From a virus, in the IMG/VR virus record IMGVR_UViG_3300025889_000083, positions 1 to 64,000 of that record: 64,000 nt of DNA. One strand, given 5' to 3'. The translations under genes were made by a program, and so were the position numbers. The notes beneath the pieces are model-generated. The model searched no databases. It saw nothing but the letters and a program-made list of their open reading frames with translations, and had not been told where the DNA came from. This document shows positions 35,329-62,215 of the stretch, piece after piece. Positions within the stretch are counted from its first letter, which is position 1. Each line of letters starts with the position of its first letter.

Positions 35329-35942
35329 TTCTAGTAGGAAACTCTGTCGAGTTATTAGAGTATGAATATGGAGACTATATAGAATCCTTTGATATAATAG
35401 TAAGATTCGGCAGAGGTATTCCTCGCCCAGATATTTATAAATCAGTTGGAAAACGAACTGATATCTGGATTACTGGATTTTTGAGAGCAAACTTTCATCC
35501 ACACTTTCCTACCGCACTGAAACTTCTTAATCGGTGCAGAATACACTTAAATAAAAAACCTACTCGAGAAATAGTTTTCGATCACGAAGTAATGTACTCA
35601 GATGATGAGTTAATGCTTATATTTGAAGAATTTGGTTGTAAAAACGGAGATGCAAATGCGTTGCGACCAAGTGCTGGTTATATGGGTGTTCATTATTTTG
35701 TGAATAAAATGAACATGTGGAAAAACTTAAATCTAATAGGTTTCGACTTTTTTCAAAAGAAACTTCCATGGAAACTAGGACAGGACTATCCTTCAAGTTG
35801 GCATTTACCAGAGAATACAATACAGAGAAGTCCACATGCAAAAGATAAAGAACGAGAAATCGTTAGTCAGTGGAACGAGAAAGGAATACTAAATTGGAAA
35901 ATACTTTCTGATTTGAAAGAAGAATTAATAGACTTTTCCTAG
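35256..35942 (+). CDS. GT29 (sialyltransferase)-like protein
   Basis: V.LVGNS...I..FD.IVR...VGKRTD (sialylmotif L-like), PSAG and LIGFDF. Confidence 0.65.
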   Translation: MAGRLRKRGVCRRMVSDKIRNKSVILVGNSVELLEYEYGDYIESFDIIVRFGRGIPRPDIYKSVGKRTDIWITGFLRANFHPHFPTALKLLNRCRIHLNKKPTREIVFDHEVMYSDDELMLIFEEFGCKNGDANALRPSAGYMGVHYFVNKMNMWKNLNLIGFDFFQKKLPWKLGQDYPSSWHLPENTIQRSPHAKDKEREIVSQWNEKGILNWKILSDLKEELIDFS

Positions 35943-36884
35943 AATATAACCTGCTTGAAGTATTTTTCGTGTAGCTTGCTTTTGCTTTTCAGCTTTTAAC
36001 AAGATTCTTTCATTTACTCTAGCGTTTCTAAGATTTACAGGGATTCTGTCTATTAAATTTGCATATAGATCAAAAGGAACTGCTAATGCTACTCCCATAG
36101 GACAGTCAGCATATTCAGCAACTAAATATTTATGATCGCAACTAATAGAAAATGCTTTTCTCATTGCAATATTATGATTAAGAGTATCTGCTGTACCGAT
36201 AGAATCAACTTTGATAAGATAATCTACCTTCATACTTGCATACAAAGGCATATGTCCAAATTTATAAGTTTTTAATGCGTTAAAAAATACATTATTTCTT
36301 GCACCATTAATATAGGCATCAAGTCTGTGTTCTAATCCAATAACTGCAGGAGCTCTGCCGTCTTCAAAGAATAATTCATGATCTCCTATCTTATCTAGTT
36401 CATCCCAATTAAATAGCATAAAATTAGTATCTAAATCATTTTTCTCATGTGAAACTCCAAGTATATTGTAATAATTTCTATACATTGGATGCTCTATATA
36501 CTGCCATCTTTTAGGAGCCATAACAACACCTTTTTGCCAGTCTGCTGGTGGTAATTGTCCTACCCAGTCTCTAAGAAATATTCTATTGTCTCCGAACATT
36601 AAAACTCTTTTATTGAGTTTACCATTCTTACTTCCTTCGCCTCTATACCATCTTCTTATAAGAAGTAAAAATTTTGCTTGCCAGTTACCATTAGCTACCT
36701 TTGAAGGTATTTGATAGCATTTATAATTTTTGAAATTTCTGTCAATCCATTCAACAACTTCTTTGTCCCATTGATCTTCATGAAACCCAACATGTAGGCG
36801 AAAGCTATCCCCATCCCAATCTAACATGGATGCGAGTGTGAACATTCCGTACACTGGTTTGTATCTATAAATTACTTCTATCAT
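35925..36884 (-). CDS. putative glycosyltransferase-like protein
   Basis: Weak GT8-like features (TLASM, TNFMLFN); last gene of the late unit, lying between GT-like genes. Confidence 0.4.
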   Translation of the reverse strand: MIEVIYRYKPVYGMFTLASMLDWDGDSFRLHVGFHEDQWDKEVVEWIDRNFKNYKCYQIPSKVANGNWQAKFLLLIRRWYRGEGSKNGKLNKRVLMFGDNRIFLRDWVGQLPPADWQKGVVMAPKRWQYIEHPMYRNYYNILGVSHEKNDLDTNFMLFNWDELDKIGDHELFFEDGRAPAVIGLEHRLDAYINGARNNVFFNALKTYKFGHMPLYASMKVDYLIKVDSIGTADTLNHNIAMRKAFSISCDHKYLVAEYADCPMGVALAVPFDLYANLIDRIPVNLRNARVNERILLKAEKQKQATRKILQAGYILGKVY

Positions 36885-37795
36885 TTTGCCATCTTATATT
36901 CCCAGAAGGAGTGTAGGTATCTATCCATACGTTCTTCTGCATCGTTATCAAAGTTAAAAATTATACCTGAGTGTTTTGCACTAAGGAGTTTACATAGTGC
37001 TGTATATGCACCTTGTTGTGAACACTGATTTGATATAGCGTAGTAAAAACTTTCGTAAGTAAGTAGATTTTTTTCTCTTACATCTTTTGGTGTACTTACT
37101 AAGCGTAGTTTTTTACCTAGTAAAATTGCTATCAAACCCATTTCACTATTTGGTGCACAAGCTACTTCTTTTGCGTTCATAAGAAGTTCAAATCCACCTG
37201 ACTTTTTATTCAAGATTTTATCTGCTCCAAGTTTTTCTCTTAGCAGTGCCATCCAAATGTGTGCTGTTATTGGATGCGGTTTTACCATAAATCCATCTGC
37301 TACTGCCTGTCGCATTTTATTCCAGTCTAAAGTATTTTTATACATTAGATTACTGCCAGGCGGGAATATTACTTTATCATAGAACTCTGGATTTGTTTGT
37401 AAAACATATTTATTGTGAAGATTGTCTTTTATCTTTTGTATTCTATCTTCATCAATTTCTATATCGCCATTTACTATTCCAGCAAAAAACTTATCATTGA
37501 TTTTTATAGACGGAACTCTCATTACAATTCCTTTGCCTAAAAAATCAGTATAAAGCCATGCTCTTATAGTTGAGACTTCATTTGTATTAAACCAAATATC
37601 ATATTCAAATGGTCTACCTCTAAATGAATCTCTGATTACTCTTTTACGAAATTCTGCTAAGTCGTTAAGATCCTCTTTAGGTCTAAATGCGCTTCCTGAT
37701 TTCATAAAATGAGTTGGTATATCACCAAGACATTCATTTATTGTTAGAGCTTGAAGTGGCTTTTTTGGTTTTACTATTCCGCCTTCTTGAGCCAT
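36881..37795 (-). CDS. KpsS/KpsC-like capsule-synthesis (GT-B) protein
   Basis: VKPHP and NSEMGLIAILLGK resemble the KxHP and NSxxGxEA..GK motifs. Confidence 0.6.
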   Translation of the reverse strand: MAQEGGIVKPKKPLQALTINECLGDIPTHFMKSGSAFRPKEDLNDLAEFRKRVIRDSFRGRPFEYDIWFNTNEVSTIRAWLYTDFLGKGIVMRVPSIKINDKFFAGIVNGDIEIDEDRIQKIKDNLHNKYVLQTNPEFYDKVIFPPGSNLMYKNTLDWNKMRQAVADGFMVKPHPITAHIWMALLREKLGADKILNKKSGGFELLMNAKEVACAPNSEMGLIAILLGKKLRLVSTPKDVREKNLLTYESFYYAISNQCSQQGAYTALCKLLSAKHSGIIFNFDNDAEERMDRYLHSFWEYKMAK

Positions 37796-37965
37796 TCTCT
37801 AAACTCCTTTTGAAGTTGGTAAAGTACCACTTCAATATTTTTTATTCTTTCTTCATTTTCGCCCATATTATCAAATATGGCTGCCATCATGCTTTCTAAT
37901 TTCTTATTTACATAATCGGCGTCTACTTTTGTATCTTTATGTCCTTCTATCAAGTCTCGCTCCAT
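37774..37965 (-). CDS. small coiled-coil protein
   Basis: Heptad repeat; overlaps both neighbours. Confidence 0.6.
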   Translation of the reverse strand: MERDLIEGHKDTKVDADYVNKKLESMMAAIFDNMGENEERIKNIEVVLYQLQKEFREWLKKAE

Positions 37966-40610
37966 TTAGAGCCATCCCAATAGGACTGCCCTAGATCTTG
38001 AGCACTTGCCACTTCTGTATCGAAGATTGTTCCTAATGTGGAGGCGGTTATTCTTTCATAAATCACAGTATTAGTTGCTGTTGCAAATACTGTGAGGTGA
38101 TCTGTAGTTCTGCTGGTCTCTGTAAGTCTATTTGAACTTGTTGTTCTAACTGTAGCGGTGGATTGCGTAGTATTAAATGTTGTGGTTGTAGTATATGCTG
38201 TAGTTGTAGCAAATAGAGTAGCAGTTGATCTTGTAGTATTAAATACTGTAGTTGTTTCTCTAGTAGTGTTAAATGTTGTAACTGTTGCATAAGCAGTTGT
38301 AGTTGTATATGCAGTAGTTGTAGCTTTAGTTGTAATGTAAGTTGTTGTAGTTGTATATGCTGTAGTAGTACTATAAGCAGTTGTTGTTCCTTGAGAAGTA
38401 TTAAATGTTGTAGTTGTTTCTCTAGTAGTGTTAAATGTGGTTGTAGTCGTATACGCTGTTGTAGTTGTATAAGCAGTTGTTGTTGCGTTACTTGTTATAA
38501 ATGTAGTTGTAGTATTATATGAAGTTGTAGTTGTATATGCTGTAGTTGTAGCTTTACTGGTTATAAATGTTGTAGTTGTTGTATAAGCAGTTGTAGTTGT
38601 ATAAGCTGTAGTTGTAGACTTACTGGTTATAAATGTTGTGGTTGTGCTATACGCTGTTGTAGTTGTATATGCAGTAGTAGTTGCCTTCGAAGTATTAAAT
38701 GTTGTAGTTGTACTTCTTGATGTACCAGTAGCTCTTGATGTAATACGTGAAGTTATATATGCAGTTTCATAGTTTGTTATTCTAGAAGTTGCTGTATTAT
38801 CAATATATGCTGTGGTTGTACCTCTAGCAGTATTTGTATTATTTGTAAATCCAGTATTATCTACATAAGCTGTTGTTGTACCACGAGCTGTATTTGTTGT
38901 ATTTGTAAATCCTGTATTATCTATAAATGCTGTAGTTGTATTTCTCGCTGTGTTTGTTGCATTTGTAAATCCAGTGTTATCTATAAAGCCTGTCGCAAAT
39001 GCTGTTGAGTTCGTAAATCCTGTAGCACGAGCAGTATTTGTGTTTCGATAAGTTGTTCTTGCTGTGTTTGTAGTGTTTGTAAATCCAGTAGAGTTTGTAA
39101 ATCCTGTACCACGAGCTGTATTCGTATTTCTATAAGTTGTTCTCGCAGTATTTGTTGTATTTGTAAATCCAGTTGAGTTTGTAAATCCAGTAGCGTATGT
39201 AGTAGATCCACTAAACGCAGTATTTCTAGAAGTATTTGTCCATCTAGTAAAGAAACCTTCTGACTGATCTCCGTATACTGTAATATTTTGGAATGTAGTT
39301 AATCTTATACCAGATGTAATTCTAGTTGTGTTTCTAGCAGTATTTGTATTTCTGGATGTTGCTGTATTGTCTATAAATCCAGTAGCAAAAGCTGTTGAGT
39401 TTGTAAATCCAGTATTTCTTGATGTGTTTGTATTTCTGGAAGTTGCAGTATTATCTATGAAACCTGTAGCAAAAGCAGTCGAGTTTGTAAATCCTGTGCT
39501 ACGAGAAGTATTTGTATTTCTGTATGTAGTTCTCGCTGTGTTTGTTGCTCTTGCAGTATTTGTGTTGTCAATAAATGCAGTACCTGTAATTCTAGCGGTA
39601 TTTGTCGCTCTTGAAGTGGCTGTATTGTCAATAAACGCTGTAGATGTAATTCTAGCAGTGTTTGTAGCTCTAGCTGTATTTGTAGCATCAATATATGCTG
39701 TAGATGTAATTCTAGCAGTGTTTGTTGCATTTGTAAACCCTGTAGTTCTACTTGTTGTGATAGTTGTATCATATGAAGTAGTATATGTAGTAGTGGTATT
39801 GTAAGCTGTGGTTGTAGCTTGTGAAGTATTAAAAATTGTAGTAGTACTTCTTGATGTTGCTGTACCTCTACTTGTACCAGTAGCTTGTGATGTATTGAAA
39901 GAAGTTGTTGTACTTCTTGATGTACCAGTACCTCTACTTGTTGCAGTACCTTGTGATGTATTATAAGAAGTTGTTGTACTTCTTGATGTTCCAGTACCTC
40001 TACTTGTTCCAGTAGCTTTTGAAGTATTATAAGCTGTAGTAGTTGATCTACTTGTACCAGTTCCTCTACTTGTTGCAGTTGACTGAGTAGTATTAAATGT
40101 AGTTGTTGTTGACTGTGTTGTGTTAAATACAGTTGTTGTCTCTCTACTTGTACCAGTACTTCTTGATGTTGCTGTTCCTTGCGATGTATTATAAGCTGTT
40201 GTAGTACTTCTACTTGTAGCAGTTCCTCTTGATGTACCAGTTGATTGTGTAGTATTAAATGTAGTTGTTGTTGACTGACTAGTGTTAAATGTAGTTGTAG
40301 TACTTTGTGAAGTTCCTGTTGCTCTACTTGTTGCAGTTGACTGAGTAGTATTAAATGTAGTTATTGTATTAAAGACAGTGCTAGTATCAAAGACAGTAGT
40401 TGTATTAAAAGTAGTTACCTGAATACCTGATACATATGTTGTTTCAGTATTTGTAACTCGCAATGTATCATGCACTGCAACAAATGGTCCTTCTAACGAA
40501 CCACCATCATTTACATAAACTTCATTGGCACGACGAAGCGTACCGCCATCGTTGACAGCTACAAAGCGTAACTGGCGTAAAGTGCCATTGTCGTTTACAT
40601 AAATTGCCAT
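37950..40610 (-). CDS. Thr-rich self-complementary repeat protein, putative giant beta-hairpin fibre
   Basis: 886 aa; YVNDxG N-terminal module, TxT repeats with Arg/aromatic mirror symmetry, YWDGSKW C-terminus; lies in the tail-fibre operon. Confidence 0.85.
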   Translation of the reverse strand: MAIYVNDNGTLRQLRFVAVNDGGTLRRANEVYVNDGGSLEGPFVAVHDTLRVTNTETTYVSGIQVTTFNTTTVFDTSTVFNTITTFNTTQSTATSRATGTSQSTTTTFNTSQSTTTTFNTTQSTGTSRGTATSRSTTTAYNTSQGTATSRSTGTSRETTTVFNTTQSTTTTFNTTQSTATSRGTGTSRSTTTAYNTSKATGTSRGTGTSRSTTTSYNTSQGTATSRGTGTSRSTTTSFNTSQATGTSRGTATSRSTTTIFNTSQATTTAYNTTTTYTTSYDTTITTSRTTGFTNATNTARITSTAYIDATNTARATNTARITSTAFIDNTATSRATNTARITGTAFIDNTNTARATNTARTTYRNTNTSRSTGFTNSTAFATGFIDNTATSRNTNTSRNTGFTNSTAFATGFIDNTATSRNTNTARNTTRITSGIRLTTFQNITVYGDQSEGFFTRWTNTSRNTAFSGSTTYATGFTNSTGFTNTTNTARTTYRNTNTARGTGFTNSTGFTNTTNTARTTYRNTNTARATGFTNSTAFATGFIDNTGFTNATNTARNTTTAFIDNTGFTNTTNTARGTTTAYVDNTGFTNNTNTARGTTTAYIDNTATSRITNYETAYITSRITSRATGTSRSTTTTFNTSKATTTAYTTTTAYSTTTTFITSKSTTTAYTTTTAYTTTTTFITSKATTTAYTTTTSYNTTTTFITSNATTTAYTTTTAYTTTTTFNTTRETTTTFNTSQGTTTAYSTTTAYTTTTTYITTKATTTAYTTTTAYATVTTFNTTRETTTVFNTTRSTATLFATTTAYTTTTTFNTTQSTATVRTTSSNRLTETSRTTDHLTVFATATNTVIYERITASTLGTIFDTEVASAQDLGQSYWDGSKWSET
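38100..40420 (-). repeat. degenerate tandem coding repeats (10-, 20-, 22- and 28-aa periods)
   Basis: Recurring GTAGTTGT / AGTTGTTGT-type DNA units; TSRxTxTSR, TTTAYTTTT and TGFTN peptide units. Confidence 0.9.
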
Positions 40611-40841: not shown

Positions 40842-43800
40842 TTATACCTCTATTGTTGTTCTAATAAATTTGTAAGTCATGCTATCTGTTGAAGCAGGAG
40901 TTACTAATAATCTTACATTACCACCGCTTATATCTGCATCAAATGTTGCCTGAGCAAGATTGTCAAAGATAGATGCGAACTGTGTTAAGTATACATTTGT
41001 TCCGTCATGGAAAAGTAAAATTTCTAATGCTTGATAATCCCCATCAGTTGTGTTATGAACCTGTACTATATATTTTGCAGTTCTAAATGTTGCTGAAGCG
41101 AAAGAATCAAGTGCAAATTGTGATGTTGAAGATGAACTTCCTGTACCTACATCCATACCCGCCACTTCATCAATGTGAAGTTTTTGTGGTGGGCTTGTAT
41201 CTTGAATACCTAATACACCTGCTGCATTTGTTATATCAGTAGTTCCATTACCAAGTGTTGTTGTTCCTTGTGTATTTACATCACCTGAGAAAGTTACTGT
41301 GCCACTAAATGTTTGTCCACTTAATGCACCACTTGCTAACTCACTTGTTCCAATAGCATTTGCGGCAATCTTAGCTGAAGTTACTGAATTACTTGCTAAA
41401 TGAATTGCATCTACAGATCCAGTTACTAACTCACTTGAATCTACTGAGTTTGCAGCAATTTCAGATGAACCTACTGCATTACCTGCTATTTCACTTGAGC
41501 CTACTGCATTTCCAGCAATCTTAGTTGCGGTTACTGCATTTGAAGCAATGTGTATTTCATCAATAGATCCACTTACTAATTCGCTAGAATCTACTGAGTT
41601 TGCTGCTAAGTGTGATGCATCTATAGAATCAGTTGCAATTTTATTTGCGGTTACTGCATTATCTGCAATATGAATATCATCAATTGATCCACTTACTAAT
41701 TCACTGCTATCTACTGAGTTAGCGGCGATTTCTGTTGCTGTAACTGCATTTACTGCAATTTTCGCATTTGTTACTTGTAAGTCTCCAATATGAATAGTAT
41801 CAATGCTACCACTTACTAACTCACTTGAATCTACTGAGTTAGCGGCGATTTTTGTTGATGTTACAGCATTATCTGTTATTTGTAAAGTACCTACGCCATT
41901 AGTTTCAATTTCACTTGTTCCAACTGAGTTTGCTGCAATATGTCTTGCTACTATTGAATTACTTGCAATTTCGTCACTTGTTACAGCATTTGCGCTGAAG
42001 TGAATTGTATCAATAGACCCACTTGCTAATTCGCTGGAGTCTACTGAGTTTGCAGCTATTTTAGCAGCTGTTACAGCATTTGCTGCTATTTTTGCTTCGG
42101 TTACAGAATCAGTTGATAAGTGAACTGCATTAACAGCACCACTTATAATTTCAGCAGAATCTACTGCATTTGCGGCGATCTCTGAAGATCCTACTGCTCC
42201 TGCACTAATATGTATTGCTAGAATAGAATCAGTTGCAATTTCACTTGATCCAACTGAATTTTCTGCAATTTCTTCTGATCCAACTGCATTTGCAGCGATC
42301 TGTAAAGAGCCTACTGCGTTAGCAGCTACTGCACTTGCTGTTCCTGTTAAGTTTCCTTCGACATTTGCTACAAGAGTTCCTACTGTATAACCAGAAGCAC
42401 CTGTGTCTACAGTTGAAGTAGGAGCTACTTGTGAATCAACAAATAGTTTCCATTTGTTGTCATTTGCATCTCTGAAAAGACCTGCATATAAATCTGTTCC
42501 TGCTGGATCGTATAATCCATAAAGTCCGATATCGATTGCATCTGTTGAATCATTTGTAGATGCAACCTGTACAAGACCATCTTCAACTGTTAATGTTGTT
42601 GAAGAAACTATAGTCTCGCTTCCTGAAACAGTTAAGTTTCCAGAAACTACTAAGTCATTCATTGTAAAGTTTGAAGTATTTGATAATTTCGCACCAGTAA
42701 TAGCATTGTCTGCTAAATGAATAGTTAATACGCTACCAGTTACTAACTCACTTGAATCCACTGAGTTTGCGGCGATTGTTTCTGCAGTAACTGCATTTGA
42801 AGCAATTTTATTTGCTGTAACTGCGTTTGCGGCAATAGCATTTTCTACAACTGCACTTGCTGATAAGTGAATTGAATCGATAGAGCCAGTTACAAGTTCG
42901 CTACTATCAACAGAGTTTTCTGCTATTTCTGCGGAACCTACTGCATTTGCGGCTATTTTAGCAGCTGTTACTGCATTGTCACCTAAGTTATGAGTTGTAA
43001 CATTTCCTTCTACAATATGTCTTGTTAAAATACTATTTGTAGCAATTTTATCTGATGTAACTGCATTATCTTGAAGACAGTGTGTTTGAATTGAGTTACC
43101 AGCAATAATTCCATGAGTAACAGAGTTAGAAGCAATTTCAACTCCTGTTACAGCATTTGCTGCTATTTTAGCAGTTGTTACTGCTAATGAAGCAATCTGC
43201 GCTGATCCAACTGCATCACTTGCTATTTCACTTGTACCTACTGCATTTGCACTAATTTCAGCATTTGTTATAGAGTTATCTGCCATCGCATCATTAGTAA
43301 CTGCATTTGTTCCAATATGAATTGTATCTACTGCTCCAGAAGCAAGATGTACTCCTGTAACTGCATTACTTGCGATTTGAGTTGATTGTACTGAGTTTAA
43401 TTTAATTTCTGCGGAGCCTACTGAATTAGAAGCTATTTTTGCAGTTGTAACTGCATTAGCTGCTATTTGTACTGTTCCTACTGAATCAGTTGCTAAATGT
43501 AAAGCTGTGATTGAATTTGTTGATATTTCACTTGATCCTACAACGTTCTCTGCTATCTTAGCGGCAGTAATTGCGTTGTCGGTAATATGTGTAGTTTGTA
43601 CTGCATCGGTTGCAAGTTCTGAACTTGTAACCGCATTTTCAGCGATTTCACTTTGACCTACTGCATTAGCGGCTATCTGTGGAGCACCGACAGCATTTGA
43701 GGCGATCTCTGCAGTATCTACAGAGTTAGCGGCAATTTCATTTGAAGTGACAGCATTTGCAGCTAGTTTTGCAGTTGTAACTGCACCAGTTGAAATATGA

Positions 43801-44099
43801 ATAGAATCAATAGACCCACTTACTAATTCGCTGGAGTCTACTGAGTTTGCAGCAATAGCTGCTGCATCAATTGAGTTATCGCTTACTGCTGTAACTGCTG
43901 TACTCGCTAATTCCCTAGATGTAATAGCGTTTGCTTGAATCTTAGCGGAAGTAATCGAGTTAGTTGATAGTTCTGAAGTTGTAATACAGTTTGCAGTAAT
44001 TTCTGATGCAGTAATACTATTGCTTACAATTTCGGTTGTACCAACTGAGTTTGCTTCTAGCGATGCTACAAGTGCTAGTTGTTTACCTATAAGTGCCAT
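40842..44099 (-). CDS. long tail fibre with 10-aa repeats
   Basis: IAANAVTTAK / IAANSVDSSE repeats flank a GNLTVSG..T.V.STTL.VED domain; C-terminal FRTAKY..Q...E....HDG domain. Confidence 0.8.
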   Translation of the reverse strand: MALIGKQLALVASLEANSVGTTEIVSNSITASEITANCITTSELSTNSITSAKIQANAITSRELASTAVTAVSDNSIDAAAIAANSVDSSELVSGSIDSIHISTGAVTTAKLAANAVTSNEIAANSVDTAEIASNAVGAPQIAANAVGQSEIAENAVTSSELATDAVQTTHITDNAITAAKIAENVVGSSEISTNSITALHLATDSVGTVQIAANAVTTAKIASNSVGSAEIKLNSVQSTQIASNAVTGVHLASGAVDTIHIGTNAVTNDAMADNSITNAEISANAVGTSEIASDAVGSAQIASLAVTTAKIAANAVTGVEIASNSVTHGIIAGNSIQTHCLQDNAVTSDKIATNSILTRHIVEGNVTTHNLGDNAVTAAKIAANAVGSAEIAENSVDSSELVTGSIDSIHLSASAVVENAIAANAVTANKIASNAVTAETIAANSVDSSELVTGSVLTIHLADNAITGAKLSNTSNFTMNDLVVSGNLTVSGSETIVSSTTLTVEDGLVQVASTNDSTDAIDIGLYGLYDPAGTDLYAGLFRDANDNKWKLFVDSQVAPTSTVDTGASGYTVGTLVANVEGNLTGTASAVAANAVGSLQIAANAVGSEEIAENSVGSSEIATDSILAIHISAGAVGSSEIAANAVDSAEIISGAVNAVHLSTDSVTEAKIAANAVTAAKIAANSVDSSELASGSIDTIHFSANAVTSDEIASNSIVARHIAANSVGTSEIETNGVGTLQITDNAVTSTKIAANSVDSSELVSGSIDTIHIGDLQVTNAKIAVNAVTATEIAANSVDSSELVSGSIDDIHIADNAVTANKIATDSIDASHLAANSVDSSELVSGSIDEIHIASNAVTATKIAGNAVGSSEIAGNAVGSSEIAANSVDSSELVTGSVDAIHLASNSVTSAKIAANAIGTSELASGALSGQTFSGTVTFSGDVNTQGTTTLGNGTTDITNAAGVLGIQDTSPPQKLHIDEVAGMDVGTGSSSSTSQFALDSFASATFRTAKYIVQVHNTTDGDYQALEILLFHDGTNVYLTQFASIFDNLAQATFDADISGGNVRLLVTPASTDSMTYKFIRTTIEV

Positions 44100-58101: not shown

Positions 58102-58478
58102 TATGCTTCGTAAACTCTTCTAAATTGTGCATTAAGAGTGTAGTAATCATCATACACCCATGTTTGATCCCAAGTATCACAGACCACTTTTATTGTTTCT
58201 TCACTTCCACCAGCATTTGAATCTGATAATGTAAAGTTAAAGTTTGTGACTCCGCCTTTTGATTCAAAGAACGCTACGATATCATCTATATCTGCTTTTG
58301 GTCGAGTTGTAAAAGCTACATCTATAGTTTGTTCTAAACTATTTATACCGTTTGCAATTCTTTGCTCATATCCATCGCCAAAGTTAGCAACAAATACTCT
58401 TGGTTTGTTATTTCTTTTTTGTCCTCTATCTGGAACTACTACTCCGAGTGTTCCGCCTACATCAAATCCTATTGCCAT
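58101..58478 (-). CDS. distal tail protein (lambda gpM-like)
   Basis: FGDGYEQR..NGIN, F....G...F and F..V.E. Confidence 0.85.
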   Translation of the reverse strand: MAIGFDVGGTLGVVVPDRGQKRNNKPRVFVANFGDGYEQRIANGINSLEQTIDVAFTTRPKADIDDIVAFFESKGGVTNFNFTLSDSNAGGSEETIKVVCDTWDQTWVYDDYYTLNAQFRRVYEA

Positions 58479-61400
58479 TATGTACCACTCAATAATCCAC
58501 CTGCGCGTTGTTCATCAGCTATTACTTCTTTAACAGCCGCTGCTATTATAAGTCCCATTTCTCCTCCACGATCTGAGGTCATGGTTGTCTCTCCGTTTGC
58601 CATATTTACATTAACAGAGATATTGTTTGTTCCACCAGATTTTCCTTGCATTTCTACTGGAATACTTCTTCCATTTGGTAGAGGAACTACAGCTTCAGTG
58701 CCATGTAATTCTGCAAGATAGCCAGAGCTTGGTCCTGTTGATACTGCTCCATCACTATACGATCTATAACCAGGTGCGTTTGCTATACCGCCTTGTCTAA
58801 CTCCAAATAATGCTTTTAGACCACCCATAAGACCACCACCATTAGCCATACCACCAAAGAAGCTGTTTGCACTTTGATAAATCATTGCTGCCATTTGAAT
58901 TTTTGCGGCGATTTCCATAAGTTTTGCTGCTTCTTCACTTTTTCCTGCAGCACCAAGTAACATTGAGGCTCCTCCTAAAAATTTAGTAGAAACTCCTGTG
59001 AAAGTATCGACGCCTTCCTTAAATTTATCAGCAGTAGTTTGTGTGCCTGCAAGAGTAACAGAGTTAGGATCTATTCTTTTAATTCCATTTCCTGTTGTAG
59101 TTCCTGTTGTAGTACCTGAACCTGTACTTACACCTGGAAGTGATTGTAAAGCTGTATTTAAGCTTTGTATGTTAAGTTCTAATTGATCGTATTCGAGATT
59201 TAAAGCCTCGATTTTTTCATTTGCACCTGTTGCTAATCCGATATTTTTTTCTTGAGTTTTTCGGTAGTTTTCATTTGCACTTTCTAATTTAGCTATTTCG
59301 TCTTTAATTGCCTGCAAAGTCATTGGTTGGGTATAAGGTCCATAAGGACCGTCAGTTAGAACGTTACCCGTTACCTTAGAAAAATCAGCACCTATACTCT
59401 CATAACCACCTGATTTTGCTATGACTTCACTAATTTGATCCAGTCCATCTTCTAAAAATAGTAGTCTTCTATTATTCGCTGCTTCTGCGGCTTTAGCATT
59501 ATTATAAGCACTTCTAGCAGTTGTTAGTTCGTTGATGTCTCCTTTTATTCCACTTTTCTTTAATTCAGTGGCGGCAATTTCACCTTGTGTTTTAAGTCTA
59601 AAAGCAATTAGAATTGCAGCTTTATGATAGTCTGCTCCTGATTTAATTGCTTGTTCTATTTTGGAAGATGCGGTTTGCATGCCTTTTTGAAGTGCACCGC
59701 CTTCATCTACGTAAATATCTTTTGTAATCTTATTAGGATCAAACATTGTGCCCCCTAATAAGTCTTCCATCATTCTTTCACTGATTGCTTTTCCAACAGA
59801 GTCAGTTAAAGTTTTTGTTAATTCTTCTCCGATATTTTTAAATGCATTTGCTTCACCTCGTAAAGCTGCTCCAATAGAAGAGCCGAGTTTACTAGTAATA
59901 TCATCTAGCATGCTAGTATAGAAATTAAATAGCTCACTTTGTTGTGCTTTTGCTATTCTATAGTTTTGTTTTAGAACTTCAATATTACCTTTTGCTTGTT
60001 GTACTCTAAGCTGTGCAGATTCGTCTCCTTGTTTCTTAGATAGTTCATATGTTGCAGCTTCTAGTTCATTTCGTGCTTTTGCTAGATTAAGTACTGCTGT
60101 CATTGTTTTTTCGTATGCTTTTGCCTCTCTTTGTCTTTTTGTACCAAAGCTATTTTCAGCAACTTCTAAAGATACTCCTAACTGTGCCATTGCAATAAGA
60201 TGAGCCTCTTTATTTAAAGCATTAATATACTCTAATTCTCCTCTAACTAATAGAAGTTGAGCAGCATATTTTCTATGTTCACCAGCAAGCTGTTCCATTG
60301 CCTGTGCTTGAGTTTTTAATTGATCTGTAATATCTTGATATTTTAATTTTGGGAGAGCTTGTATTAAGCTATTGGTTAATTTTACAAGAGCTGACTGCGC
60401 TTGATTATAAGATTTTATAGCTAACATATTTGTAATATGTTTATCGGCAAGTTTTGATACTTCTTTTATTTGTTCACTTGTTAATTGTTTTCCTTCTCTT
60501 AATACATCTGCATAAACTTTCATTTCAGGATCAAGTCTAGACATTGTATCTAATTGTTCTAATAATTTATTGTTAAATTTTTCAAATTCTTTAGGTGCAA
60601 GATTGCTTCCATTTGCAAAAACTTGATACTCTTGTAGTCTATTAACTAAATCTGCACTTTGAAATGCTTGTCCTAATTGTGAAATCTGCTCATCAATACC
60701 TTTTAATAATCCTCTCTCGCGAACTTGTGCCATTTTATCAAGTTCTTGATTTAAACTATCCATACTTCTAGTACTTTCTGAAATTCCTTCGGCAAATTTA
60801 TTTATCGTTTTTCCATTAAATTTATCTACTAAATCTCTTAGTACAGTAAAAGCTGTGATTGCTAAACCAATATAACCTAACCATCTCAATAGTCCTGTTA
60901 TAGCTGTCATAAGTCCTGTTCCTAATGCTTTGATAGTTCCTATAAATTTACCATATTCTATTTGCATTTGGTATAAACTAGATTTCCACTCTAACATTAT
61001 TCTTTTAAATCCAGTGGATTGATCTATAACTAATTGATTCTGTAAGATTTTTAAATCTAGAAGAAGTTTTTTCTCTGCACCTTTTACAAAGTTATGGTGA
61101 TTGAGTAGACTAGATTTTTTTGCTTCTAATGCTTTTCTATACTGTTCTAGATCTGCTTGTGTATACTCTCCTTCTTGAAATCTTGCTAGTCTTCCCTGTG
61201 CGGCTTTTGATCCCGGCTTAGTTTCTAAAACATTGAATAGTTTACCTTGCGCGCCCCCTGTAATTCTACCAATATCTGCTTTTTGCATAGCAGGTAATAA
61301 AGATCCTACTATACTTGCAGTAAAACCTACAATAGCAAATGTTGCTGCTTCAGTGCTCTCAGTTATTCCTTTTGCAATAAACTCAGATATAGTTGCAATA

Positions 61401-62215
61401 ACAGGACGAGCTTTATTTAAAAGTTCATCAAATGCGATTCCAACTTTATTTATGGCATTACTGGTTGGATCCATAATTTCATTAATAGCTCCAAATTTTT
61501 CTTCTACCTGTCCTAAAACTTCTGTTGTTACTGCCTGTGACTTTTGGAAGATTGTTAATTGATTTTTATTTAGACCAAGAGCAGCGGCGTATTTTATAGA
61601 CGCTTCTTCGAGTCTTAACACAATACCCAGTTCATCCAAAAGTTCTGGTTCCGCTTTTGTCACACCACGAACTAATCTATTAAATGAATCTGTTACATCT
61701 CTACCAAGTGCGATTGAAACTGTTTTTGCGGCAGCACCTAATTCTCTTAATTGAGTGGGAGATAAACCTGCAGCTAATCCGATAGCTGCTGCTTGTGATG
61801 CCTCTTTAAAACTAATTTGAGCATCTGTTGCAATTTGTAAATCTTTTGCTAAAGATTTAATTGCCATGCCTGTTGTCGCGGCAAATGCAGCCTGTCCTTC
61901 TCCTAATACTCTGAAGTCAGCTGCATCTTTTAAAAAACGGAATAACGCATCAATTGCAAATAATTGAGCCGCTAAAGTAGCGTAAGCAGGTACAAGAACT
62001 CCTCCGATTCCTTGTGCCATTTTTGAAAAGTTTTTAGTTGCATTTGAAGATTGTTTTGAGACACCTTTCATTGCACGGTCAGCTGACTGTGCATTTAATC
62101 CAACTGTATTAAAAGCTGCGCCTGTTTTTTTGGCTTGTTGCTCTACAATCTTGTATGAGCCATCATCCGACATGCGGATGACAATGGTACCAGCTTCAAT
62201 TTTTTTCTTTGCCAT
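58478..62215 (-). CDS. tape measure protein
   Basis: 1245 aa helical; EPELLDELGI, hydrophobic segments and C-terminal ELHGTEAVVP. Confidence 0.9.
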   Translation of the reverse strand: MAKKKIEAGTIVIRMSDDGSYKIVEQQAKKTGAAFNTVGLNAQSADRAMKGVSKQSSNATKNFSKMAQGIGGVLVPAYATLAAQLFAIDALFRFLKDAADFRVLGEGQAAFAATTGMAIKSLAKDLQIATDAQISFKEASQAAAIGLAAGLSPTQLRELGAAAKTVSIALGRDVTDSFNRLVRGVTKAEPELLDELGIVLRLEEASIKYAAALGLNKNQLTIFQKSQAVTTEVLGQVEEKFGAINEIMDPTSNAINKVGIAFDELLNKARPVIATISEFIAKGITESTEAATFAIVGFTASIVGSLLPAMQKADIGRITGGAQGKLFNVLETKPGSKAAQGRLARFQEGEYTQADLEQYRKALEAKKSSLLNHHNFVKGAEKKLLLDLKILQNQLVIDQSTGFKRIMLEWKSSLYQMQIEYGKFIGTIKALGTGLMTAITGLLRWLGYIGLAITAFTVLRDLVDKFNGKTINKFAEGISESTRSMDSLNQELDKMAQVRERGLLKGIDEQISQLGQAFQSADLVNRLQEYQVFANGSNLAPKEFEKFNNKLLEQLDTMSRLDPEMKVYADVLREGKQLTSEQIKEVSKLADKHITNMLAIKSYNQAQSALVKLTNSLIQALPKLKYQDITDQLKTQAQAMEQLAGEHRKYAAQLLLVRGELEYINALNKEAHLIAMAQLGVSLEVAENSFGTKRQREAKAYEKTMTAVLNLAKARNELEAATYELSKKQGDESAQLRVQQAKGNIEVLKQNYRIAKAQQSELFNFYTSMLDDITSKLGSSIGAALRGEANAFKNIGEELTKTLTDSVGKAISERMMEDLLGGTMFDPNKITKDIYVDEGGALQKGMQTASSKIEQAIKSGADYHKAAILIAFRLKTQGEIAATELKKSGIKGDINELTTARSAYNNAKAAEAANNRRLLFLEDGLDQISEVIAKSGGYESIGADFSKVTGNVLTDGPYGPYTQPMTLQAIKDEIAKLESANENYRKTQEKNIGLATGANEKIEALNLEYDQLELNIQSLNTALQSLPGVSTGSGTTTGTTTGNGIKRIDPNSVTLAGTQTTADKFKEGVDTFTGVSTKFLGGASMLLGAAGKSEEAAKLMEIAAKIQMAAMIYQSANSFFGGMANGGGLMGGLKALFGVRQGGIANAPGYRSYSDGAVSTGPSSGYLAELHGTEAVVPLPNGRSIPVEMQGKSGGTNNISVNVNMANGETTMTSDRGGEMGLIIAAAVKEVIADEQRAGGLLSGT

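Follow-up and report, generated by a model that had tools for sequence, protein, structure and literature searches.

The needle domain of the phage T4 long-tail-fibre tip, gp37, is reported by Bartual et al. 2010 to contain a chain that goes out to the receptor-binding tip and comes back, such that outgoing and returning strands lie side by side and both chain ends point towards the virion. The needle is trimeric and contains seven iron atoms held by His residues (PMC6957217). The fold-back part of gp37 is short, with tens of residues per arm held by His-x-His iron sites. Intramolecular antiparallel pairing over hundreds of residues is seen in the coiled-coil arms of SMC and Rad50 proteins, where arm length is under selection and engineered or natural resizing must keep both helices matched and in phase (PMC5344682). 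Those arms are alpha-helical with heptad periodicity, and allowed lengths fall in steps of about 100 aa. In RNA stems, two distant segments of one gene co-vary under a pairing code between bases, lasting indels on one side are matched on the other and single-sided changes are seen only as young variants. The L-shaped tail fibre of phage T5, pb1, is a long side fibre encoded late in the tail module and carries a C-terminal intramolecular chaperone.

The gene described here was found in a window of 64,000 nucleotides (positions 1 to 64,000 of IMG/VR record IMGVR_UViG_3300025889_000083, 104,148 bp in full), where it is present in a single copy in the virus record. It encodes an 886-aa protein with 38% Thr that contains tandem arrays of 22-, 20- and 28-aa units, a short unique centre and then arrays of 28-, 20- and 22-aa units. 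The features of the gene, in window coordinates, are as follows.

37950..40610, minus strand: whole gene, 886-aa Thr-rich protein, inferred to be a fibre
40446..40610, minus strand: conserved N-terminal domain, residues 1-55, with three YVNDxGTLR-like repeats, invariant alignment columns and GPF at residue 41 (in all 92 homologues); presumed attachment end
39270..40445, minus strand: outgoing (N) arm, residues 56-447
39822..40085, minus strand: N-arm 22-aa unit x4, residues 176-263
39549..39728, minus strand: N-arm 20-aa unit x3, residues 295-354
39330..39497, minus strand: N-arm 28-aa unit x2, residues 372-427; 70/84 nt identical, with 12 synonymous and 1 non-synonymous codon differences
39249..39269, minus strand: predicted apex loop, residues 448-454 (DQSEGFF), centred on the symmetry axis at residue 451; the last pair is 447/455
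38073..39248, minus strand: returning (C) arm, residues 455-846
39024..39191, minus strand: C-arm 28-aa unit x2, residues 474-529, of a different sequence from the N-arm pair that it faces; 72/84 nt identical, with 11 synonymous and 1 non-synonymous codon differences
38805..38984, minus strand: C-arm 20-aa unit x3, residues 543-602, facing the N-arm 20-aa array
38433..38696, minus strand: C-arm 22-aa unit x4, residues 639-726
37950..38072, minus strand: conserved C-terminal domain, residues 847-886 plus stop (ERIT...FDTEV...YWDGSxW), conserved in all 92 homologues, which would lie next to the N-terminal domain

The first-pass annotation had described duplicated units of 28, 20 and 22 aa at mirror positions on the two arms of a hairpin, and this observation was confirmed, with exact residue coordinates. 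Residues 372-399 and 400-427 are 27/28 identical, as are residues 474-501 and 502-529, which represent a different unit. Tandem Repeats Finder showed the same layout in the DNA, in mirror order, with period 66 at 39814-40097, 60 at 39524-39725 and 84 at 39339-39527, followed by 84 at 39007-39194, 60 at 38794-38985 and 66 at 38432-38687. Under the rule i+j=902, the 22-aa arrays face each other exactly, the 28-aa arrays within 1 residue (the mirror of 372-427 is 475-530) and the 20-aa arrays within 5 residues (mirror 548-607), which is within the arbitrary phase of a tandem repeat. An independent metagenome contig (L094) matched residues 246-886 with the same copy numbers and 3 differences in 1926 nt.

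The mirror relation is far beyond chance. At i+j=902, 67 of the 72 large residues on each arm form aromatic-Arg/Lys/Gln pairs in a run of 392 consecutive pairs with no bulge or register slip, whereas any other register from 802 to 1002 gave at most 28 such pairs and one thousand parity-preserving shuffles of the C arm gave 12.7±2.8 (maximum 24). Aromatic residues of the N arm correlated with Arg/Lys of the C arm (r=0.92) and Arg/Lys of the N arm with aromatic residues of the C arm (r=0.80) at this register only. Strict two-residue alternation was noted over residues 60-850, with all F, Y and R but four at even positions, and pair counts on the even face were T-T 99, R-Y 17, F-R 16, R-F 12 and Q-F 9. 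Pair log-odds from 18 homologues were +2.3 to +3.8 bits for F/Y with R/K, +3.7 for F with Q, about 0 for Y with Q, -9.6 for R with T, +1.2 to +1.7 for G/S with I/V and +1.1 for A with V.

The collection of homologues of different length had been proposed as a test of whether N-arm and C-arm indels are paired, with arms of commonly unequal length or unpaired repeat counts as the contrary outcome, and was performed with 92 distinct homologues (624-1621 aa). In 61 of 61 homologues tested (742-1621 aa), the best register equalled pos(GPF)+pos(FDTEV)-2 and was thus fixed to the two conserved ends. In 20 homologues, the axis computed from the two ends alone fell within 1 residue of an F[DC]PExGT[DE][FY] turn motif. 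Gapped hairpin alignment indicated that arms match to the residue in most homologues; 34 had no bulge at all over 320-724 pairs and 19 more had only regular 1-residue bulges, where 21-aa units face 20-aa units. The pair-scoring matrix was learned from family members, so these alignments are not fully independent of the model, and the distal arms of a Cys-rich subfamily were not explained by the aromatic-basic pair code (6 sequences unmodelled). Facing arrays shared their period at 1948 of 2174 positions (90%). Indels between relatives were mirror-paired in size and position. For example, the list for the homologues L003 and L001 was (450,-20)(525,+18)(535,+6)(546,+2) on the N arm against (438,-20)(526,+18)(538,+6)(548,+2) on the C-arm mirror; the same was seen for L074/L060, while L073/L081 was mirrored in size with two matches offset in position.

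Imbalances of a whole unit were noted in 12 clean cases, of which 11 were 98.8-100% identical to a balanced sibling and shorter than it. These sequences behave as transient intermediates or assembly errors rather than as stable forms. Because the unbalanced variants are almost all shorter than their siblings, which is also what repeat collapse by assemblers would give, the existence of slipped intermediates in nature is not settled by these data, and metagenomic reads were not examined for unbalanced copy numbers. The interpretation of the first-pass annotation, that each length change needs equal-sized indels at two sites up to about 2 kb apart, which implies strong compensatory selection through register-slipped intermediates or else an unknown coupled mechanism and could make fibre length tunable (here 257-749 pairs), was supported in its first alternative, whereas the coupled mechanism is not needed and is disfavoured.

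The genomic context of the gene is that of a tail module. The tape measure (58478-62215), a minor tail protein, a 2031-aa protein and a 1085-aa PHROG tail-fibre gene (40842-44099), which the present gene follows, lie directly upstream on the same strand, and the DNA polymerase of this virus is 44% identical to those of T5-like phages. However, no Pfam or PHROG family was matched at E<=0.1 or E<=0.01, phmmer against all PDB chains gave no hit at E<=1, gp37 included, and the ESM Atlas returned only unnamed viral clusters. Searches of GenBank phages by tblastn and megablast found nothing, probably because of the low-complexity filter, a word-indexed protein search also found nothing and an exhaustive HMMER search returned almost only N- or C-terminal fragments. 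The fibre role is therefore without a family anchor, and neither virion proteomics nor imaging formed part of this work. About 170 loci of this new, fairly common marine viral protein family were recovered.

Compared with gp37, the present arms are far longer (257-749 residues in the family) and are held, in this view, by aromatic-Arg/Lys/Gln rungs; the protein has only 2 His in 886 residues and no HxH ladder. Mirrored repeat arrays or mirrored indels have, to our knowledge, not been described for gp37, and literature searches on fold-back or Thr-rich fibres and on paired indels found no such description. Whether the chain runs to the tip and returns antiparallel as in gp37 is left undecided here, since the sequence evidence for antiparallel pairing is very strong but no confident three-dimensional model was obtained. 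AlphaFold2 with 8 homologues gave an unusable pLDDT of 33.6 for the whole chain, and with 22 apex fragments gave 37.1 for the apex fragment; the two strands drawn in the latter model, 423-438 and 464-479, do sum to 902, but the model is too weak to count and MAFFT had scrambled the arm registers in the underlying alignment. The SMC/Rad50 arms are analogues in logic only, with unrelated functions, given the strict period of 2 residues (beta-like), the scarcity of Leu, Glu and Lys and the strands-only AlphaFold2 drawings seen here; in the present family any even step is allowed and length varies continuously by gain and loss of tandem units. As in RNA stems, two distant segments of the gene co-vary under a pairing code, lasting indels on one arm are matched on the other and single-sided changes are seen only as young variants, but here the code acts between amino-acid side chains (F/Y with R/K/Q, T with T, small with branched). 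No sequence similarity to T5 pb1 was found, no C-terminal self-cleaving chaperone (peptidase S74-like) domain was detected by Pfam and the conserved C-terminal part is only about 40 residues; pb1, as far as we know, is not described as a fold-back hairpin.

The best explanation, to which we assign a probability of about 0.8, is that the protein is a fibre of a marine T5-like siphovirus whose chain runs out for about 390 residues, makes a tight turn and runs back antiparallel in exact register, so that residue i lies opposite residue 902-i. One face of the ribbon would carry Thr-Thr pairs interrupted every 4-6 residues by a rung in which Phe or Tyr on one arm meets Arg, Lys or Gln on the other, while the other face would carry small residues with size complementarity (Gly, Ser or Ala opposite Ile or Val). 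The conserved terminal domains would meet at the base and the variable, aromatic-rich apex is the likely receptor-contacting tip. Because a rung only forms in register, an indel in one arm would break all pairing beyond it unless the other arm gains or loses the same number of residues at the mirror site. In this view, tandem units in each arm gain and lose copies independently, by replication slippage or unequal recombination, unbalanced forms are short-lived and only lineages that have restored balance persist, while exchange of the contiguous central segment between alleles, which is balanced by construction, probably adds to this. The result would be a fibre whose length can be retuned over more than a two-fold range. 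The pairing rule, its register, the mirrored arrays and indels and the youth of the imbalances were demonstrated by the sequence comparisons, whereas the physical hairpin, the oligomeric state (probably a trimer, as for other phage fibres) and the fibre role are inferences.

Cassette exchange as the main source of paired differences is possible but considered unlikely. Any contiguous central segment from position x to position S-x (S being the sum i+j) is itself a balanced hairpin, such that one double crossover between alleles, for example in conserved junction motifs, would change both arms at once with no compensatory second mutation. In agreement with this, junction motifs on both arms ([FY][DE]TxIxT[SD]R and [YF]ET[ASD]..TSR) sit at exact mirror positions, proximal arm lengths fall into a few classes (151, 193/195, 211, 239, 283), each found with very different distal lengths, and both amino-acid and synonymous identity fall from the ends towards the centre in L074/L060 and L003/L001, a mosaic-like gradient. 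However, a sharp identity boundary was looked for and not found, exchange cannot create the in-place tandem duplications seen on both arms of one protein, since balanced variety must first arise somewhere, and the nested indels of opposite sign (-20,+18,+6,+2) within a pair that is 93% identical need several events. A single molecular event that duplicates or deletes facing units on both arms is very unlikely. The two 28-aa duplications have almost equal divergence and nucleotide identity of paired duplicates correlated weakly across the family (r=0.41), but third-position identity was uncorrelated (r=0.13, p=0.18) and some facing arrays differ clearly in age (in the homologue L006, 20-aa units scored 0.55-0.80 on the N arm and 0.93-1.0 on the C arm). 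In addition, facing units have unrelated sequences, so neither can template the other, single-arm variants occur on either arm around one balanced parent, L085 (an N-arm deficit in L069, a C-arm deficit in L084 and L088), and a misaligned recombination patch spanning both arrays would be expected to give +1/-1 rather than +1/+1.

Pairing between two chains rather than within one, as a head-to-tail antiparallel homodimer or a higher even oligomer, giving a rod twice as long with both kinds of terminus at each end, would satisfy i+j=constant equally well and is not excluded by any structure. This reading is also improbable, since the symmetry axis coincides with a tight-turn motif (DPExG) or a short loop of 0-21 residues in most homologues, Gly/Tyr/Trp-rich inserts of 50-85 residues sit there like a knob in some, odd-length indels occur mostly at or near the axis (the regular 1-residue bulges of one subfamily being the exception) and phage fibres attach by one end. 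A relic of DNA history, such as an ancient inverted or palindromic duplication, or a by-product of low-complexity sequence was rejected as far as sequence analysis allows. While highly repetitive Thr-rich sequences do give many spurious self-matches, the arms are complementary rather than similar, with low aromatic-aromatic and basic-basic correlations at 902, both are read from the same DNA strand, shuffles and all other registers fail and the register is maintained through dozens of independent indels in 92 homologues.

A more far-reaching reading, judged only slightly more likely than not, is that this family is a natural programmable protein duplex, a beta-hairpin hundreds of rungs long whose arms recognise each other through a simple side-chain code (aromatic with Arg/Lys/Gln, Thr with Thr, small with branched residues). 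It would therefore evolve like a nucleic-acid stem, with compensatory indels and co-duplicated rungs, and would let phages retune fibre length (roughly 85-250 nm if fully extended) and swap tips without refolding problems. Such an architecture would be new for proteins and could serve as a design principle. If the hairpin is real, this family, on which fold predictors currently fail, is an unusually clean case of structural co-evolution in a protein, in which hundreds of residue pairs follow a readable code and length changes at two sites up to about 2 kb apart are visibly compensated in natural populations, and it gives protein designers a candidate rule set for long, register-specific beta-ribbons. 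In that case the gene gives a ruler-like fibre whose length and tip can be altered in modules, which bears on how marine phages adapt their reach and host recognition.

The two matched sets of repeats lie within one gene, which is single-copy in a 104,148-bp IMG/VR virus record rated complete. The gene, its neighbours and two overlapping reading frames are as follows:

37950-40610, minus strand: the gene itself, encoding 886 aa, of which 333 are Thr
40842-44099, minus strand: upstream gene for a 1085-aa protein built of dozens of short ANAVT/ANSV-type repeats that matches PHROG tail-fibre families (phrog_892, E 3e-124)
35925-37795, minus strand: the two genes directly downstream (304 and 319 aa)
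39328-39804, plus strand, and 39455-39772, minus strand: ORFs of 158 and 105 aa inside the gene

A tape measure, a minor tail protein, a 2031-aa protein and the 1085-aa protein lie just upstream on the same strand, which places the gene in a tail module, and the DNA polymerase is 44% identical to T5-like phages. The 886-aa protein itself matched no Pfam or PHROG family and no PDB chain, and in the ESM Atlas it matched only unnamed viral clusters. The 1085-aa protein is probably the fibre to which the putative hairpin protein attaches. For the downstream genes, Pfam gave no family at E<=0.1 for either protein, and PHROGs gave only a family of unknown function (phrog_26179) for the 304-aa protein. 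The two internal ORFs are by-products of the repetitive ACN-rich coding sequence read in other frames and are unlikely to be genes.

The first-pass annotation had described a 28-aa unit duplicated at residues 372-399 and 400-427 and a different 28-aa unit duplicated at 474-501 and 502-529, three 20-aa units at 295-354 facing three at 543-602, and 22-aa units at about 176-263 facing 22-aa units at about 639-726. Each of these residue ranges was found to be exact, and Tandem Repeats Finder indicated the same layout in the DNA, with periods of 66, 60 and 84, then 84, 60 and 66. When the two halves were tested for a mirror rule of the form i+j=S, one register stood alone, S=902, at which aromatic residues of the N arm faced Arg/Lys of the C arm with r=0.92 and the converse gave r=0.80, over 386 positions. 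In this register, 67 aromatic-R/K/Q rungs were formed out of 72 large residues on each arm, whereas no other register between 802 and 1002 gave more than 28, no parallel offset gave more than 30 and one thousand parity-preserving shuffles of the C arm gave 12.7±2.8, with a maximum of 24. The pairing ran without a single slip from residue 56 to 447, facing 846 to 455, and left a 7-residue apex. From residue 60 to 850 the sequence alternated strictly, with Thr or a large residue (R, F, Y, Q, K, D, N) at even positions and Thr or a small residue (A, S, N, G, I, V) at odd positions, and rungs were spaced 6 residues apart (40 times), 4 (18 times) or 8 (7 times). Under i+j=902 the 22-aa arrays faced each other exactly, the 28-aa arrays within one residue and the 20-aa arrays within five. 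A second, independent metagenome contig (L094, Ga0070749_10053981) carried residues 246-886 with the same copy numbers and 3 differences in 1926 nt, indicating that this phage or a near twin occurs in another sample. The observation of matched repeats on the two arms is confirmed and is not due to chance.

Two scans of IMG/VR and one of JGI metagenomes gave about 170 loci (numbered here with the prefix L) and 92 distinct full-length homologues of 624-1621 aa, all with the same N-terminal domain (GPF at residue 41) and the same C-terminal domain (FDTEV...WDGxxW). In all 61 homologues tested, the best mirror register equalled pos(GPF)+pos(FDTEV)-2, although length varied more than two-fold. The axis computed from the two ends alone landed within one residue of a turn motif, F[DC]PExGT[DE][FY], in 20 homologues of 752-1063 aa. 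This motif, which resembles the DPETGT turn of the designed mini-hairpin chignolin, was shared exactly on the axis by many homologues (L074, L080, L082, L060, L073, L028, L039, L037, L044 and others), whereas the protein from the window has a different apex (VYGDQSEGFF). Some homologues (L001, L003, L014, L096 and L137) carried a 56-70-residue Gly/Tyr/Trp/Ser-rich insert at the apex (e.g., GGNYYSGWGGG...) that looks like a small knob domain on the tip. Two conserved junction motifs, one per arm, also sat at exact mirror positions, the proximal arm measured on the C side exceeding that on the N side by exactly 10 in all 13 homologues for which this was worked out from landmark positions, while the arm itself ranged from 151 to 283 residues. 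Pair statistics from 18 members gave a clear code, which was F/Y with R/K at +2.3 to +3.8 bits, F with Q at +3.7 (Y-Q about 0) and R opposite T at -9.6 and, on the other face, G/S opposite I/V at +1.2 to +1.7 and A opposite V at +1.1.

Whether indels of the N and C arms are paired in homologues of different length, the comparison that the first-pass annotation had put forward as a check, was examined with a gapped hairpin alignment in which the base was fixed, the tip was free and the gap-open penalty was -12. The 92 proteins were classed as follows.

Classes of the 92 homologues in the gapped hairpin alignment
No bulge at all over 320-724 consecutive pairs: 34
Only 1-residue bulges: 19
Bulges of 2-7 aa, mostly near the tip or in a divergent subfamily: 11
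A bulge of 8 aa or more: 22
Distal arms not described by this code (Cys-rich subfamily): 6

In most of the 19 proteins with 1-residue bulges, the bulges recurred once per repeat because 21-aa units faced 20-aa units, so that unit count rather than length was matched. In one subfamily (L023, L047, L052, L046, L067, L017, L010 and L132-L169, N arms around residues 430-650), the 21-aa units contained GLAAV and lay on the N arm, opposite 20-aa units on the C arm. The Cys-rich subfamily (L012, L015, L030, L034, L036, L070, L136 and L140) kept the aromatic-basic code in the proximal arms only; the distal arms have odd-length units rich in Cys, His and Ile-Val, are not explained by the code and may use a different pairing, perhaps disulfide rungs. 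In 25 bulge-free proteins, facing tandem arrays had the same period at 1948 of 2174 positions, and most exceptions were simple multiples.

Ordinary global alignments of relatives, which know nothing of the mirror, nevertheless gave palindromic indel lists. The list for L003/L001 was -20,+18,+6,+2 | +2,+6,+18,-20, at mirror positions within 12 residues, that for L082/L060 was -20,+28,(-1 at the axis),+28,-20, that for L074/L060 was +6,-6,+12 | +12,-6,+6 and that for L070/L034 was -44,-44 ... -44,-44. For L073/L081, all indels were mirrored in size, although two matches were offset in position and one was split. All of these mirrored indels were of even length, whereas odd ones occurred mostly at or near the axis, the regular 1-residue bulges being the exception.

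Twelve sequences (L042, L108, L165, L127, L130, L129, L009, L069, L084, L088, L139 and L050) were otherwise perfect hairpins with one unpaired whole unit or, in L050, two units. Eleven of these were 98.8-100% identical to a balanced sibling, and all eleven were shorter than it. Both kinds of single-arm variant were noted around one balanced parent, L085, which was assembled from three samples; L069 lacked 20 aa on the N arm while L084 and L088, from two samples, lacked 20 aa on the C arm. In most of these sequences, the exact repeats around the missing units were only 29-50 nt long, which argues against simple assembler collapse, although L050 has an 83-nt exact repeat. The consistent deletion bias keeps collapse possible, and read-level evidence for the unbalanced alleles was not obtained. 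Either way, length differences that have lasted long enough to gather substitutions are mirrored, and, with two possible exceptions (L042 at 86% and L137 at 92% from the nearest balanced relative), imbalances were seen only at essentially zero divergence.

The mirror rule, its register and the matching of arrays and indels rest on the sequences themselves, whereas the physical hairpin, a probable trimer and the length of the fibre are inferences. AlphaFold2 failed for both the full chain (pLDDT 33.6) and the apex fragment (pLDDT 37.1), and the symmetry of the two strands in the latter, 423-438 and 464-479, about the predicted axis is at best a weak hint. The main gap is an experimental or confident predicted structure, together with read-level evidence for the unbalanced alleles. 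No trimer was modelled, and the length estimate of about 130 nm for 392 pairs assumes an extended ribbon with the standard beta-strand rise. An antiparallel dimer would satisfy the same rule but fits poorly with the tight-turn motif, the short loops and the knob-like inserts at the axis. The wide range of even repeat periods (16-66 aa) and of even indel sizes argues, again by inference, for a uniform ribbon rather than a solenoid with a fixed coil size.

The nearest phage precedent is the fold-back needle of T4 gp37. That needle is far shorter, is held by His-iron sites (PMC6957217) that are absent here and shows no sequence similarity. The nearest evolutionary precedent is the matched antiparallel coiled-coil arms of SMC proteins, whose length is under periodic constraint (PMC5344682), and compensatory change in RNA stems is a second. 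Full-text literature searches found no description of such a fibre or of mirrored indels in one. Fold-back phage fibres and compensatory evolution of paired arms are known, whereas the scale and the pairing code seen here are unprecedented.

The first-pass annotation had proposed that paired length changes imply either strong compensatory selection through register-slipped intermediates or an unknown coupled mechanism; its interpretation is supported in the former version, while the latter is unlikely. In the gene from the window, the two 28-aa duplications are similarly old, with 12 and 11 synonymous differences and one replacement each. However, the facing units have unrelated sequences, so that one cannot template the other, and across 112 facing duplicate pairs in the family, third-position identity on the two arms was uncorrelated (r=0.13, p=0.18). 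Some facing arrays also differed clearly in DNA age, as in L006, where the 20-aa units scored 0.55-0.80 on the N arm and 0.93-1.0 on the C arm while the proteins were nearly identical. Exchange of the contiguous central segment between alleles would change both arms at once and is compatible with the fall of synonymous identity towards the centre, but no sharp boundary was seen, and such exchange cannot make the in-place duplications. These findings point to independent slippage, unequal recombination or homogenisation in each array, with selection removing unbalanced forms, rather than to a coupled mutational event.
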